Shown here: positions 6,082 to 62,886 of the stretch, in pieces | Layout: the number at the start of each line of letters is the position of its first letter | Numbering within the stretch: the stretch's first letter is position 1 | From: Callorhinchus milii | Taxonomy: Eukaryota | Assembly (NCBI RefSeq): GCF_018977255.1 | Contig: NW_024704742.1 | Coordinates: forward strand, 116,996,001 to 117,060,000 | Reading direction: 5' to 3' | DNA length: 64,000 nt | Translations under genes and position numbers: made by a program | Notes under the pieces: generated by a model | What the model was told of the DNA's origin: nothing | The model's input: only the letters and a program-made list of their open reading frames with translations | The model's database searches: none

Positions 6082-7111
6082 AAAACAACAACAACAAGAT
6101 TCATTTATAGAGTGCCTTTCTTGTCGGGAGGATGTCCCAAGGTGCTGGACAGTTGGGTCAGGACCCGAGCAGGGGGGAAATGGTCAGGGTGAGGGGAGGA
6201 AAGGGAGGGAGCAAGGAGGGGGTAGAGAATCGAGAGGGGAGCTGAAGGCACGGTCGAAGAGAAAGGTCTTGAGACCGGCCTTGAAGGAGGAAAGGGAGGA
6301 GGCGGCGAAGGCACTGGGGGATAGAGTTCCAGAGCCTAGGGGCTGGGAGGCTGAAGGCCCGACCACCGATGGTAGGGTGGTTGGGGCGGGGGACGTGGAG
6401 CAGACCGGAGCCAGAGGAACGGAGGGTACGGGCAGGTAGGTAGGGGGATTGTAGGTCGGAGAGGTAGGAGGGAGCAAGGCCGTGAATGGCCTTGTAGGTG
6501 AGGATGAGGATCTTGATTTCGATCCTCTGGGGGATGGGGAGCCAGTGGAGGCGAGCGAGGGTGGGAGTGATGTGGTCCCGAAGCCTGGTGCGGGACAGTA
6601 CATGAGCTGCAGATTTCTGAATGACCTGCAGCTTGTGGAGGGAGGTGCCGGGAAGACCGGCGAGGAGAGAGTTCCCATAGTCCAGCCTTGAGGTGATAAA
6701 GGCGTGGACCAGAGTTTCAGCAGCGTGAGGGGTGAGGTAGTGCCGTAGTCTGGCGATATTCTGGAGGTGATGGAAGGCGGTGCCAGTTGTGGCGCAGATA
6801 TGAGGAAGAAAGGACAGCTCAGGGTCGAACAGAACCCCGAGGTTCCTGACTGGCTTTGAGAGGTGGAGAGTGCAGCCTTGGATGCTGATGGTGTCAGCGC
6901 CTGAGGTGCGGAGGCGCTGACGTGAGCCAATCAGGAGGGCCTCAATTTTGCGCACGTTGAGCTGAAGAAAGTTGTCTCTCATCCAGGACTCGATGTCGGA
7001 CAGGCAGGCTGTCAGGACATCGGTGGTCATGGAGTTGAGGGTAGAGGAGGAAAGGTAGAGTTGGGTGTCATCCGAATACATGTGAAAGTTAACCCCATGT
7101 CTGCGGATGAT
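6082..7111 (-). mobile_element. Young L2 LINE, 3' part
   Basis: ORF 6158-7180 with HMYSDDTQLY RT motif; intact 3' tail. Confidence 0.93.
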
Positions 7112-7440
7112 AATAATAATAATAATAATAATAATCCTTGCATTTGATATAGCGCTTTTCACGTCGGGAGGACGTCCCAAAGCGCTTCACAGAACACACT
7201 GTAAAGTGAATTGACTGTATATTTGTGGGCGAACGCGGCAGCCAATTGCGCACAGCAATGTCCTACAAACAGTCGTAGATTGAAAATGACCAATTTATTA
7301 TTGTTTTTGGTTTTGGAGGGATTATTATTAGGCTCAGTGTGGAGTAAGGAAACTTGCCCAAGGTTTCACTCTGCCTGGAATTGAACTCAGGTCTCTCGCT
7401 TGCAAAGCGAGTGCTCTAACCACTGAGCTACAAGACTCCA
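7112..7440 (-). mobile_element. tRNA-Ala SINE, short form, full length
   Basis: Near-identical to the other young copies; L2-type ctccc loop. Confidence 0.93.
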
Positions 7441-7994
7441 CAATTATATTGTAATCAATAAAAAGAAATAGCAACAATGCACAACTGGAGAAAACAAGCT
7501 ATACAGTAGATCCTGTAACATAATATAAATTTCATATTGGTCTAAAATTCACTGTACAATTTTGCATGTAAATTACAGCCAACTATTCAAGTTACCTTTA
7601 TTGCTAACAGATGTTCGCACTAAAGATGTGAAGCAGCAGCTTTATGCATCAAACTGTTGAAGACATATGAGGTCATGCAGGCATTTATATAAAACCTTAA
7701 ATTCAGCAAATTGAAGTATGGAGGCAATAACTCATCACTCGCAAGTGTGTTATTGCTAGATATCTATTTCATGATATATACAGAGAAGCTGAGTGGGGAA
7801 AAAAAATACACCTGTTGCATTTAAACACTGATACCATGTTTGCTAACATTTTGGACCTCAAATTCAGCTGTCAAGATAGAAAGATGGAATGAAGAACAAA
7901 TTTTGTTGTTTCATTAGTGAGATTCTGAAAAAACGGTCAGAATGACAAAAAGAACATTAATCATGGCTAAGGCTGAACGATCGGAGCCTGACTC

Positions 7995-8840
7995 GGGGGA
8001 GCATATAGAGGGTGAAGCGGAGGGGACCGAGGACAGAGCCCTGAGGGACACCGTACGACACAGTGCGGGGGCTGGAGGAAAAGTCGTTTGTGAAAATAGA
8101 ATGAAGACGGTGGGAGAGGTACGACCTAAACCACTCAAGGACAGGGCTTTGAAGGTTGAGGTGGGAGGACAAGCGGTGGAGGAGGATAGAGTGGTCGACC
8201 GTATCGAATACGGCCATAGGTCGAGGAGGACGAGGAGGCAGAGGGAGCCCTGGTCGCAGATGGTCAAGATGTCATTGGTGACCTTGACCAGGGCGGTTTC
8301 TGTCTTATGGGCAACACGGAAACCCGACTGAAGAGGTTCGAATAATGAATGGGTGGAGAGGAAAGAGCGCAGCTGGGAGGTGACGACTTTTTCGAGAACC
8401 TTGGACAGGAAGTGGAGGTTGGAGACGGGCCGGTAGCTTGATAGCTGCGACGCATTAAGGGAAGATTTTTTCAAAGTAGGAGTGATGGTGGCAGTTTTTA
8501 GGGGAATGGGAACAGAGCCAGAGGAGAGGGGCAGGTTGATGATGTCTGTGAGAAGTGGGGCAAGGAGGTAGAGCTGGGAGATAAGGAGTGGAGTGGGGAT
8601 GGGGTCAAGGGAGCAGGTGGTGGGTTTCAGGGACAGGATGAGGTTGGTGACAGAGGGTGGGGAAACGGGTTCGAAGGTGTGTAGGGGAGGATGGGTAGGA
8701 GTCGGAGTGTGGGAGGGAAGGGTTGGGGGGTGGGTGGAAGTTGGAGGGGCAGTGACCGTGGAGCGGATTCCCTTGATTTTGGATTCAAGGAAATCCAGCA
8801 TCTCCTCGCAGTGAAGGTTGGAGGAGATGACCTGCGCGGG
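7995..8840 (-). mobile_element. L2 LINE, upstream part of the 6082-7111 copy
   Basis: ORF 7914-8801 (YRPVSNL, QSGFR, TETALVKV) and [10 protein letters not shown]; ends 8 bp short of where 7111 resumes. Confidence 0.9.
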
Positions 8841-9454
8841 GTGGCAGATTTTGTATTCAAATCAAAATAAAAAACAAAGCAAAAGATGCTTTGAACATGA
8901 GCCCACAATGCTATGGTATTTACGAGGCACTAAAAATACAATTAGCATCTCTAAGGATAAATAAATTGAAAAGAGAAACAAATAACCTACATTTTCAATA
9001 TGAAACAGAAGAATGGAACAATAAGGAACACGTCTGATGAATTTACAAAGATCACACAGACATTTTGTGATACACAACAGCAAGATAGATACACATCCCT
9101 TTCATTCCAAATTAACTTACCACGGTTTACTTCAGTGCTTTATTTGGACTGAAGAGAGCAGCTAAACAGTGAAACATACAACATGGCATCAAAAGCTGAT
9201 AGTGATGAAAATGAACATGTGCAACATTGCACAGAAAGAGAGACACGAATAGAAGCAAAATCTGAGCCTAGGGATACAAGGACAATAAAACTTATGGTAT
9301 ATAAAATGGGCAGCCTGAAACACTGAGCCAGGACATGTTCACAAGTTCTGTGTATAAAAAAAAGGCCAAGTTTTCATCTTAAACTTGGCAAATACTGAAA
9401 CACCAAAGACGGGAAAGATTGGTCCAACATACTTTGTGCCTCATGTGAAATAAA

Positions 9455-9740: not shown

Positions 9741-10141
9741 AACGAAGGCAGGAAATACCAGGAAATACTGTATGGTTGTCCTATACAATGGTACAAAAGG
9801 CAAATAGAAATATGTAATGTCTTCCTAACCTTTGTAACAACTTAGAATTATCAAAACATTGAAATGGGAGTTGGACAAAAGAGGAGTGCTATACAATGGC
9901 ATGGGTAAAGAGCAGGGCTTTGGATCTAGGCTTCAGGGAAGAAGCGTGAATGCATATGTGTCCTTATTTATAAAGTTAATATCTATTGTAAAGGGATACA
10001 ACATCAACTTCCTTGAATCCTTTTCATTGGTTGTTTTTACTTTTATATTTAAGGATAACCTGAATTCCCTCTGGCCACATTCACTATGATTGCACACAAT
10101 TAAGCCAAGTTGCAATTTTTGTTAATCCAACACACAAATTG

Positions 10142-10288
10142 AATGCAAAATACTACAGGTGCTGGAAATCTGAAACAAAAACAGAAGTCGTTCAGCAGGT
10201 CAGGCAGCATCTATGGAGAAAGGAAAGTGAGTCAACGTTTCTGGTCCATAACCCTTCTTCAGAACTGACGAAGGGTCGTGGACCCGAA
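10142..10288. mobile_element. Penelope-like terminal fragment with inverted hammerhead motifs
   Basis: Flanked by 10-bp direct repeat ACACAAATTG (10132-10141, 10289-10298); homologous to 36415-36556; family assignment from recalled similarity and the hammerhead motif. Confidence 0.7.
10230..10266 (-). ncRNA. Minimal type I hammerhead ribozyme motif
   Basis: - strand AGUU-CUGAAGA-AGGGUUAUGGACCA-GAAA-CGUU-GACU: both core boxes, stem II, stem I AGUU/GACU. Confidence 0.6.
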
Positions 10289-10290
10289 AC
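10265..10290 (+). ncRNA. Truncated hammerhead ribozyme core
   Basis: CUGACGA-A-GGGUC-GUG-GACCC-GAAAC with a perfect 5-bp stem II; truncated by the element end. Confidence 0.5.
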
Positions 10291-11361
10291 ACAAATTGGA
10301 CCCTGGGATCTCATAAGATTGAGCTTGTTTTGGCTAGAAGAATATGAAATAGAGAATATGAAGTCAAAATTTGCAGCTTTACATCAACTAAAGTATTGTG
10401 AAAAGCAGTCAATATTTATCAATAGCTTGAGGGAGGTGAATGTTCATTTGGTGAATATGACTGTATCACTGTTTGATAATATCATATGCTGCAATTTTGA
10501 CCCCAATTTTCCGTTCACAGCAATTCTGTTACTGACATTTGCAAACAAGTCTATCTATATTCCTCCTATAGCTCTGCTGGATAACCTATGGCTCTGAAGG
10601 TTTCTTCAGTCCTGAACCTCTGTACCATCAGGTTTCAGGCAATGATTAAAGAGGTATCCTGCAGTCTATCATGTATCCAGGAGGTCTTGCTTCAGTGCTA
10701 ATGAGAGTTTCCGCAATACACCTATTTCTAGAAAGGTCAGAAGCCCCAGGTACCTGCTCAGCAAAGGTTCTATTCTATAACCAGGTATACAAGTGTTCCA
10801 GCTGTACTTGACTACACATGCATGTGACATATATGTACCTAAATGAATGAAGGTGTAACATTGTAACATTGTATGAGCATGAAGATAGTTAATAATGTGC
10901 AAAATATTATAACCTGCCATACCCACCACCTATGATCAAAATTTATAGCAGAATAACCCTTCAGACGTAACATTGGTGGAGTGGAACCAACTTCGGCTAC
11001 AGTTTGTAAAAAACGACGAAAATAGAAGTTCAAATACAAATATAGGCAATGTATATGATGCAAATAGACAATTTAGGTCCTATACCGATGCAACCCCAAC
11101 CAACTTCCAACTAAAACGAGTTTAAGATCAAGGGATGGCTTCAGTATATCAGATTCAGTTAACAAACAGTTAAGTGCTCTGCTACCCTATGAGAAGGGCA
11201 CTAATTAAGTGCAAGTTGTTGTTACAGACAAAGTTGGGTTCATTATTCTGCAAGTGACCAAATGGTGACTAGCATCTTGGGGTGGGGGGGAGTGCGGAGC
11301 AGGACATTTGGAGCTGAATTGGCTTCAAGGTGGCATGGTTTGGCAACGGAATGTCAGAATA

Positions 11362-18930: not shown

Positions 18931-20069
18931 ATTGTTTTTATTGTTATACAATCACGTAAATCTATTAATAGCAACAAGGCGGCAATATATCTTTGTGCAA
19001 GTACCCAACAGCATGAACTTAACATTGTTAAAAAAATCAGACAAATTTAACTTTGAACTGGAATTGAAAAATTCAATACATGATAATGCATTTAGATTGC
19101 TGAATTAAATCCAAATAAGAGATATTGGAATGAAATCTATGTCAATCCATAACAGATTCAATATGATCACAACAATCTGTTATAAAATGGCCAAATTTCA
19201 ATTAAAGGCTAAAGATTGGCTTCAGCATTAAATCCACTACAGTTTTAGGACATTGTTTTTCCATAAAAGCTTTTCAATCCATTTTAGCCGGCATCTTTGT
19301 TCAGATCGATAATAATAATCCTTGATTTGATATAGCGACTTAATAGGTCTTCAAGCTGCCACAAAGCACTTCACGGAACATCCTGTAAAGTGAATTGACC
19401 ATATATATTGTTTAACATCAGTTGTCCATGATGAAAGGGTGATTACATGTAGATGTTTATTGAGGGTTGGATTCGCTTCAACAGTGATCCCTGCCCCCAT
19501 CCTGCTTTGCCCCCAATTTAATTTGGCCTTAATTACACTTGTTGATATTATTAGAATTTCAGGTGCATTAAATAATATTTTACAAAATTATACGATATGA
19601 TTTATTTTAGTCCTTCACACCGCTTAATCACTGCACTTTACAGTGTGTCCTGTGAAGCACTTTGAGACATCTCAAAGATATGTTAAGGCGCTATATCAAA
19701 TGCAAAAATTATTAATTATGGTTTTAATTAGTAATTATATATATGTGGGAGGTAAATCTTGCTGACAGTGCTTATAAAACTATCCTGGGACTATCTGGAC
19801 TATCAAGACTATAAAACTAGCCTGTTTTATCTTCATCAGATTGTTAGCATGTTAGCTATTGTCTGTTTTCTTTTTACACTTTAACCTGTGGCGAAATTGG
19901 CATAGTAATTGAGTGGCAGTGTGATTCAACATAGCCCAGTACAAGATAAAATTACAGGAGAAACCAGTTAGAATGTGTTTTGTTACAAATGTAGATTAGC
20001 TTATTGTATGTTTGGGGTGTGGAGCTCAGCATTTACTTACCCAAGAATCCAAGTTACAGGTGACACACT

Positions 20070-36199: not shown

Positions 36200-36660
36200 C
36201 TAGATTGCAATGGCTCACAAAAATACTTCTAACCTTTCCCTTTGTTCTTTTGGTAATTGTTTTGCGTCTATACTTTCAGGTTACTGACTCACTGACAAGT
36301 GGAAATAATTTCTCCTTGTTACATTATCAAAACCACCTACCATTTTGAAAACCTCTATCAATTTTCCTCTCAACCGTCTCAGTGTTCTAGGGAAAACAGC
36401 CCCAGTTTATTCAACAAAACAACAAAATACTGCAGATGCTGGAATCTGAACAAAAACAGAGAGAGCTGGGAAAACTCAGCAGGTCAGGCAGCATCTATGG
36501 AGAAACCATAGATACTGCTTCACCTGCTGAGATTTCCCAGGTCTCTCTGTTTTTGTCCCAGTTTATTCAATGTTTTCTAAAGGTAAAACCTCTTGTTCCA
36601 AGAATCTTCTCTGCAACTTGTCTATAACCTTGACATCTTTCCTATAATGTTTGCTGCAGG
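36200..36660 (-). mobile_element. Degenerate CR1 fragment
   Basis: Homologous to 55913-56608 and 47750-48170. Confidence 0.65.
36415..36556. mobile_element. Fold-back Penelope-like insertion with 14-bp TSD
   Basis: TSD CCCAGTTTATTCAA at 36401-36414 and 36557-36570; internal stem of about 50 bp with a short loop. Confidence 0.8.
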
Positions 36661-58247: not shown

Positions 58248-58301
58248 AAATAGTTTCACTGACACTTATCGGTGCAATGAAAAGTGTCAGTGAAACTATT
58301 T
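58248..58301. repeat. Perfect 20-bp inverted repeat (hairpin)
   Basis: AAATAGTTTCACTGACACTT / AAGTGTCAGTGAAACTATTT with a 14-nt spacer. Confidence 0.9.

Positions 58302-62284: not shown

Positions 62285-62886
<602 letters not shown>

Follow-up and report, generated by a model that had tools for sequence, protein, structure and literature searches.

At positions 10132-10298 of a stretch of 64,000 nt of Callorhinchus milii DNA (hereafter termed the window), an imperfect palindrome presents a CUGANGA-stem II-GAAA core on each strand and is enclosed by a short direct repeat, which raises the question whether this locus harbors ribozymes or the remains of an insertion event. A reading based on the sequence alone had interpreted it as a pair of back-to-back minimal hammerhead ribozymes within a Penelope-type insertion. 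According to the present analysis, with a probability of about 0.8, the locus is the defunct end of a Penelope-like element (PLE), truncated on its 5' side and joined to a short head-to-head inverted partner which arose during insertion. The element comprises the following features:

10132-10141, no strand: left copy of the target site duplication (TSD; ACACAAATTG), an exact 10-bp repeat; empty-site contigs align up to 10141
10142-10267, sense on the - strand: long arm, the 3' end of a high-copy family, 5'-truncated at 10267
10142-10174, - strand: one-sided 'tail' of the long arm, about 33 nt, placed by alignment to a second family copy (copy 2)
10230-10266, - strand: minimal type I hammerhead motif with stem I at 10266-10263/10233-10230, CUGAAGA at 10262-10256, an extra A at 10255, stem II at 10254-10250/10246-10242, GAAA at 10241-10238, the palindromic ACGU at 10238-10235 and a predicted cut after U10234
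10260-10267, no strand: fold-back centre CAG-AA-CTG, the CTG (10265-10267) being common to the family sequence and the inverted arm
10265-10290, + strand: short inverted arm with CUGACGA, an extra A, a perfect 5-bp stem II and GAAAC, followed by target DNA
10289-10298, no strand: right copy of the TSD (ACACAAATTG), the first 2 nt of which overlap the short arm

The palindrome and the direct repeat noticed in the sequence-only reading were recovered as described there. The inverted arms (10237-10262 and 10265-10290) flank a loop of 2 nt and match as reverse complements in 22 of 26 positions, the mismatches being at 10242, 10249, 10250 and 10258; among 100 random sequences of 64 kb that share the dinucleotide make-up of the window, the top score for an inverted match of this kind was 20 of 26. 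The element folds with a z-score of -3.89, and none of 200 shuffled sequences was equally stable. The TSD ACACAAATTG is exact at both ends of the element; of 63,680 window positions, 221 have their 10-mer repeated at a distance of 100-300 nt downstream. The duplication length is 8-10 bp, since the short arm and the right copy overlap by two nucleotides, with which the former ends and the latter begins. The long arm measures 126 nt and the short arm 26 nt, with no ORF between the ends; the short arm stops at its 3' end 3 nt ahead of the position that corresponds to the predicted cut. A 177-aa frame running across the element (10064-10597) was rejected as a gene, as it has no Pfam match and the insert, 157 nt including one TSD copy, is not a multiple of three.

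The element is a real insertion that is absent at the orthologous site of two other organisms. Contigs of four of the 24 listed runs were aligned to positions 9800-10700 at 80% likeness; no RNA run was listed for this region, which carries no information on expression. Contigs of run X2, whose species label is that of the best-matching runs, cross both element junctions. Contig 25 of run X7 (organism B) is 159 nt shorter than the window and contig 1 of run X11 (organism C) 153 nt shorter, against an expected difference of 157 nt, and in both of them the left-flank alignment stops exactly at 10141 and resumes on the right flank; the call of an empty site is one of length arithmetic, with 10299-10389 lacking an alignment at 80%. 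The AT fraction of the flanks at the element is 0.66 and 0.60 and thus barely AT-rich, the target preference of PLEs being AT-rich.

The same alignments revealed that the long arm belongs to an abundant family. The numbers of family contigs aligned per run were 6,260, 14,531, 14,601 and 6,118, and the depth is elevated by three to five orders of magnitude in a plateau on 10141-10264 in all four runs and remains raised through 10295, contig depth not being equivalent to copy number. The 3' ends of the family pile up at 10142, 10145 and 10146 and then give way to unrelated A/T-rich flanks (agreement 0.43-0.52), and 4 of the 32 listed family pieces begin at 10171-10173, at the boundary of the tail. 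Beyond 10267, family sequence is common to 76-196 contigs per run in three runs. Since other family contigs continue past 10267 in shared sequence, copy 1 (the element at 10132-10298) is 5'-truncated at this position. It also lacks about 9 nt near 10190, as loose ends at 10190-10193 display the missing letters and a 7-nt gap appears in the comparison with copy 2. The reverse complement of the short arm matches the family consensus of run X13 at the loose end behind 10226. The only other family copy in the window is located 26 kb away:

36401-36570, no strand: copy 2 of the family, with a 14-bp TSD (36401-36414, 36557-36570) and no hammerhead
36450-36500 and 36506-36556: inverted arms of copy 2, 51 nt at 90% with a 5-nt centre (36501-36505) and a 35-nt tail on one arm

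The equivalent of the copy 1 tail in copy 2 is a stretch of 35 nt (36415-36449) on the long arm only, and, in family coordinates, the centre of copy 2 lies about 45 nt to the 3' side of that of copy 1. Moreover, a change of strand was observed at 6 among the 15 joints listed of 113, each at a different pair of places. Fold-back centres consequently vary between copies, and the centre of copy 1 appears to recur in a minority of them. These data bear on the idea that the tail, the hammerhead and the mirrored core move together as a fixed fold-back unit, a non-autonomous mini-element that would be mobilised in trans by a PLE and in which the mirror arm would serve as an antisense lock. Non-autonomous PLE derivatives are known (PMC8557442; bioRxiv 10.64898/2026.07.22.740005), and 9 of the 32 listed pieces, taken from all four runs and including the two organisms without this insertion, span 10197-10288 on one strand across the centre of copy 1, four of the nine without gaps and all of them with 6-17 other letters; however, the listed pieces were picked by length, which favours those crossing the centre, and their right ends are unreadable. 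The depth at 10265-10295 is only 0.4-0.6% of that at 10203-10233 in each run, although depth is not copy number, copy 2 has a different centre, and no master copy is needed for a centre to recur, given the natural CAG-AA-CTG mini-palindrome of the family. A fixed unit is accordingly regarded as improbable, and the variable centres are attributed to the insertion process of a PLE-type element.

The assignment to PLEs draws on the anatomy of the - strand motif and on the architecture of the insertion. As the sequence-only reading had stated, the - strand copy carries the palindromic ACGU (10238-10235) and a stem I of AGUU/GACU (10266-10263/10233-10230), the first pair of which is U.G. While a CUGANGA-stem II-GAAA core is present on each strand, the core boxes CUGANGA, GAAA and UH are complete on the - strand only. 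The + strand core possesses a perfect 5-bp stem II (10273-10277/10281-10285) that includes the 10.1-11.1 pair, and it is devoid of stem I, helix III and a cleavage triplet (no UH); the letters upstream of it fail to supply a stem I. The two cores are not independent, the + strand core being a mirror of the - strand core and not a second ribozyme. Two functional ribozymes were rejected on this ground, and a cis dimer between the two cores was likewise dismissed, because they are on opposite strands and the dimeric hammerhead fold needs two same-sense copies (PMC4209133; PMC6765202). The back-to-back pair of ribozymes proposed for this locus is hence replaced by a single - strand motif and its incomplete image. 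A relaxed CUGANGA-stem II-GAAA descriptor matched 0.87 times per random 64 kb and twice in the window, both times at this element, so that the hammerhead core alone is not beyond chance. Searches against Rfam did not return the hammerhead: at the gathering score, the whole window yielded 12 matches, all of them tRNA-like, and up to an E-value of 10 the region 10000-10450 yielded six weak matches, none of which was a hammerhead.

PLE insertions with inverted pLTRs have been described with TSDs of 8-10 bp, an optional 31-bp tail and junction palindromes that were read as evidence of self-priming (PMC3846280, Arkhipova et al. 2013), and the combination of an inverted 5'-truncated copy with a tail of 30-40 bp was reported for PLEs in PMC8557442 (Craig et al. 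2021). The locus shares with the EN+ PLE insertions of these two papers the head-to-head 5'-truncated partner, the junction palindrome, a TSD of 8-10 bp, the one-sided 30-40-bp tail and the many truncated copies. In contrast to them, copy 1 is far shorter (126 + 26 nt) and has no ORF between its ends, its junction coincides with the 5' edge of the hammerhead, inside which the short arm stops. Within the window, PLE traits were found in the hammerhead motif placed in a terminal repeat (by its - strand anatomy and as a motif without an Rfam match), in the inverted 5'-truncated partner arranged head-to-head with a palindrome at the junction in both copies, in the one-sided tail of 30-40 bp (35 nt in copy 2, with the equivalent stretch on the long arm of copy 1) and in TSDs of 10 bp (copy 1) and 14 bp (copy 2). 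By analogy, the insertion pattern is best read as an ordinary example of the described 'inverted pLTR plus tail'.

The motif itself resembles the minimal hammerheads (min-HHRs) of metazoan PLEs, for which an extra base after A9, a G10.1-C11.1 pair, a palindromic 15.2-16.2 and a short helix I were listed as characteristic (PMC4209133, Cervera and de la Pena 2014). It shares the type I core, the extra base after A9, a helix I of 4 bp and a palindromic 15.2-16.2 without loop 3, whereas helix II of copy 1 is 5 bp long and the G10.1-C11.1 pair has been lost. According to the same study, min-HHRs occur mostly solo, and opposite-strand pairs in Schistosoma are separated by 100-700 bp; in copy 1, by contrast, the cores are 2 nt apart and one of them is incomplete. 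Cartilaginous fishes are not named among the min-HHR hosts in the available sections of PMC4209133. The Poseidon element PAc of Anolis (PMC11167929, Frangieh et al. 2024) is alike in that a stem-loop and tail follow immediately after its hammerhead, that extension takes place on both target strands and that the tail is defined by two start sites. The PAc ORF starts at stem II, whereas the AUG in loop II of copy 1 runs into a stop after five codons, and no protein is known for the family of copy 1. Animal non-LTR retrozymes, which are related to PLE pseudo-LTRs and were reported from one chondrichthyan (Li, Clavereau, Pollet 2026, bioRxiv 10.64898/2026.07.22.740005), are also non-coding and equipped with a type I hammerhead; they are direct tandem repeats with one hammerhead per unit, whereas copy 1 is a single inverted stub. 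A retrozyme was rejected for this lack of direct tandem units, the only other copy in the window being without the motif, and a MITE was rejected as the inverted repeat is internal and the TSD length varies.

The repeat might alternatively represent the end of a non-PLE element, such as the tail of a LINE or SINE or a small DNA transposon, in which the likeness to a hammerhead would be incidental. This explanation could draw on the missing parent ORF, on the missing Rfam match and on the frequency of the relaxed core in random sequence. Searches for a PLE parent gave no match to the family motif in viral contigs or in prokaryote genomes and 17 loci in metagenomes, all of them chance matches of 20-29 nt, and no GIY-YIG or PLE domain was matched by Pfam in the 240 window frames scanned. 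Yet the motif has all four PLE min-HHR traits listed in PMC4209133, the inverted repeat is internal and asymmetric instead of terminal, both window copies possess long TSDs of differing length (10 and 14 bp) with no poly-A or tandem tail, and a one-sided 35-nt tail is a PLE signature (PMC8557442, PMC11167929). A non-PLE origin is thus considered highly improbable. We infer PLE membership from these traits, and the evidence speaks more strongly for an insertion that behaves like that of a PLE than for placement in a given PLE clade. From the earlier description as a Penelope-type, ribozyme-bearing insertion, the retroelement-type, high-copy character, the minimal type I motif and the inverted layout are retained, and the two ribozymes are given up.

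Comparison with the family indicates that the - strand motif has decayed since insertion. In copy 1, G10254 is opposite A10242, and the G10.1-C11.1 pair is thereby broken (G.A). The family majority has a G at + strand position 10242, which is equivalent to C11.1 and restores the pair, at 72-79% of the depth in four runs and has a Watson-Crick pair at 10250 at 65-81% of the depth in four runs, where these majority letters are depth shares and neither copy counts nor an alignment of copies. In at least two of the four arm differences, it is the long arm that has changed from the family-majority letter. All four are situated on three CpG sites of the short-arm version (10242, 10249-10250 and 10258), the short arm keeping the CpGs, and two are G-to-T changes, which is atypical for deamination. 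The clustering on CpG sites could be due to chance or to two different templates.

Folding predictions place the motif in a context that would prevent activity. For the whole - strand element, the hammerhead fold was computed to lie 20.3 kcal/mol above the ensemble, a gap that shrinks to 6.9 kcal/mol once the short arm is removed, and 8 of 10 core bases are paired at a probability of 0.8 or more in transcripts of either strand. A transcript of either strand would form a 26-bp hairpin that buries both cores. A two-strand hammerhead dimer with the arm was calculated at -5.9 kcal/mol, compared with -65.0 kcal/mol for two hairpins, a calculation that omits the short arm's own stem; without the arm, the dimer reached -5.9 kcal/mol, compared with -9.4 kcal/mol for two monomers and -16.4 kcal/mol for the best dimer. 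A second same-sense core for the dimer fold was not found in the window with the relaxed descriptor, which detected one core per strand. Because any transcript through the site would form the 26-bp hairpin, the genomic copy should not self-cleave according to these models, the folding energies of which leave out the protein help that the anole PLE hammerhead needed in vitro (PMC11167929). In the literature that was searched, no usable primary measurements turned up for either the 10.1-11.1 pair or the GUU triplet. The U at position 17 would make GUU a poorer cleavage triplet. That the - strand motif acts as a live ribozyme on a host transcript, whether by itself, assisted by a protein or through dimer formation in trans with a further family copy, is barely credible: the core boxes, stem I and ACGU are intact, the family majority retains G10.1-C11.1 and the anole PLE hammerhead cleaved once its protein was added and only then (PMC11167929), but this copy has a G10.1.A11.1 mismatch and an inverted arm that buries the core, min-HHR monomers showed no cleavage and dimers only a low one (PMC4209133), RNA-seq reads ending at the cut site were absent for the anole element (PMC11167929), and no host exon was recognised in 238 frames, short exons being liable to be missed. 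The cleavage of host pre-mRNA envisaged in the sequence-only reading is accordingly not upheld.

The insertion, the TSD, the 5' truncation, the junction matches of 3 nt and 2 nt, the motif decay and the hairpin are established parts of the PLE explanation, from which the following course of events can be proposed. A GIY-YIG endonuclease/reverse transcriptase encoded elsewhere and acting in trans would have nicked the target with a putative stagger of 8-10 nt. Primed at the left nick, reverse transcription would have proceeded over about 125 nt of element RNA, beginning with the tail and passing the hammerhead up to 10267, the first-strand cDNA corresponding to the + strand. The end of the cDNA may then have folded back at CAG-AA-CTG and copied 23 more nucleotides of itself; alternatively, a second cDNA primed from the other nick may have been joined at the centre. 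Closure would have involved joining to the right target end by means of the 2-nt match, and the + strand core would be a by-product of mirror copying. In experiments with a purified PLE protein, both strands were nicked and extended, with internal starts (PMC11167929); either route, self-priming or two-ended priming, may apply here.

Possibly the hammerhead's 5' edge (10262-10267) acts as an inherent break point of the family, at which many copies would start. Either the template RNA would begin at this edge, or the CAG-AA-CTG mini-hairpin would allow the cDNA to prime itself. Run X7 has 170 contigs that depart from the family at 10265 into unrelated sequence (agreement 0.34) and 196 that continue past 10267 in family sequence; the family part of the query stops at 10267, and a pile-up at 10265 could also be produced by divergent subfamilies. 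Joints into 10265 with 1-10 letters between the parts account for 6 among the 12 listed of 88 rows, and none of those listed has a longer upstream family sequence. No pile-up at the predicted cut site was detected among the 24 listed of 740 loose-end rows. On the sense strand, a CAG (10267-10265) directly precedes helix I and follows a pyrimidine run in the upstream family consensus, which resembles a 3' splice site and recalls Drosophila virilis Penelope, in which the end of an intron coincides with helix I (PMC4209133). Taken together, the break point is rated as unlikely. If it were true, a ribozyme-cleaved template would be recorded in the short arm, which ends 3 nt ahead of the predicted cut, and thousands of natural copies would map both the RNA processing of PLEs and the formation of inverted halves. 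As a separate observation, a pyrimidine run ending with CAG at 10170 (10170-10190, - strand) resembles another splice acceptor and lies no more than about 5 nt from the start of the tail.

The single locus is of little weight, representing decayed debris of a described pattern whose back-to-back look is a by-product of inversion. It conveys a caution for motif scans, in which each hammerhead core of a fold-back PLE stub will appear a second time on the other strand. The manner in which PLEs make inverted halves and the use of the hammerhead in transposition are treated as open in PMC8557442 and PMC11167929, and a family with thousands of short, TSD-bounded copies makes both questions testable by junction counts. 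No description of this Callorhinchus repeat family was found in the literature that was searched, repeat databases and subscription papers being outside the search.

The window as a whole is repeat-rich animal DNA. No host exons were recognised in a Pfam scan of 238 of the 240 non-repeat stop-free frames of at least 50 aa, a scan in which short exons would be missed; altogether 238 non-repeat and two repeat frames out of 477 were scanned, with two microsatellite frames left out. Apart from one sub-threshold match to DUF2101, the scan yielded RVT_1 matches in the two repeat frames only. The window contains several broken LINE-like frames, which we take to be L2, and the twelve tRNA-like matches probably mark the head regions of a SINE derived from tRNA:

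6161-7186 and 7917-8861, - strand: broken LINE reverse transcriptase frames (RVT_1, E-values 9.7e-5 and 1.5e-6), unrelated to the hammerhead stub
2426-46360: tRNA-like Rfam matches at 12 sites, 31-54 bits

Further inverted repeats were noticed outside the family. Pairs of inverted repeat fragments at 2576-2837 (43-46 nt at 81-89%) and 19325-19701 (74 nt at 77%) are apparently 3' ends of SINEs or LINEs in opposite orientation. An isolated 23-nt inverted repeat at 58248-58301 is 96% complementary around an 8-nt loop, with no TSD obvious by eye. Finally, a long compound tetranucleotide microsatellite at about 62450-62850 gives rise to low-complexity open frames.
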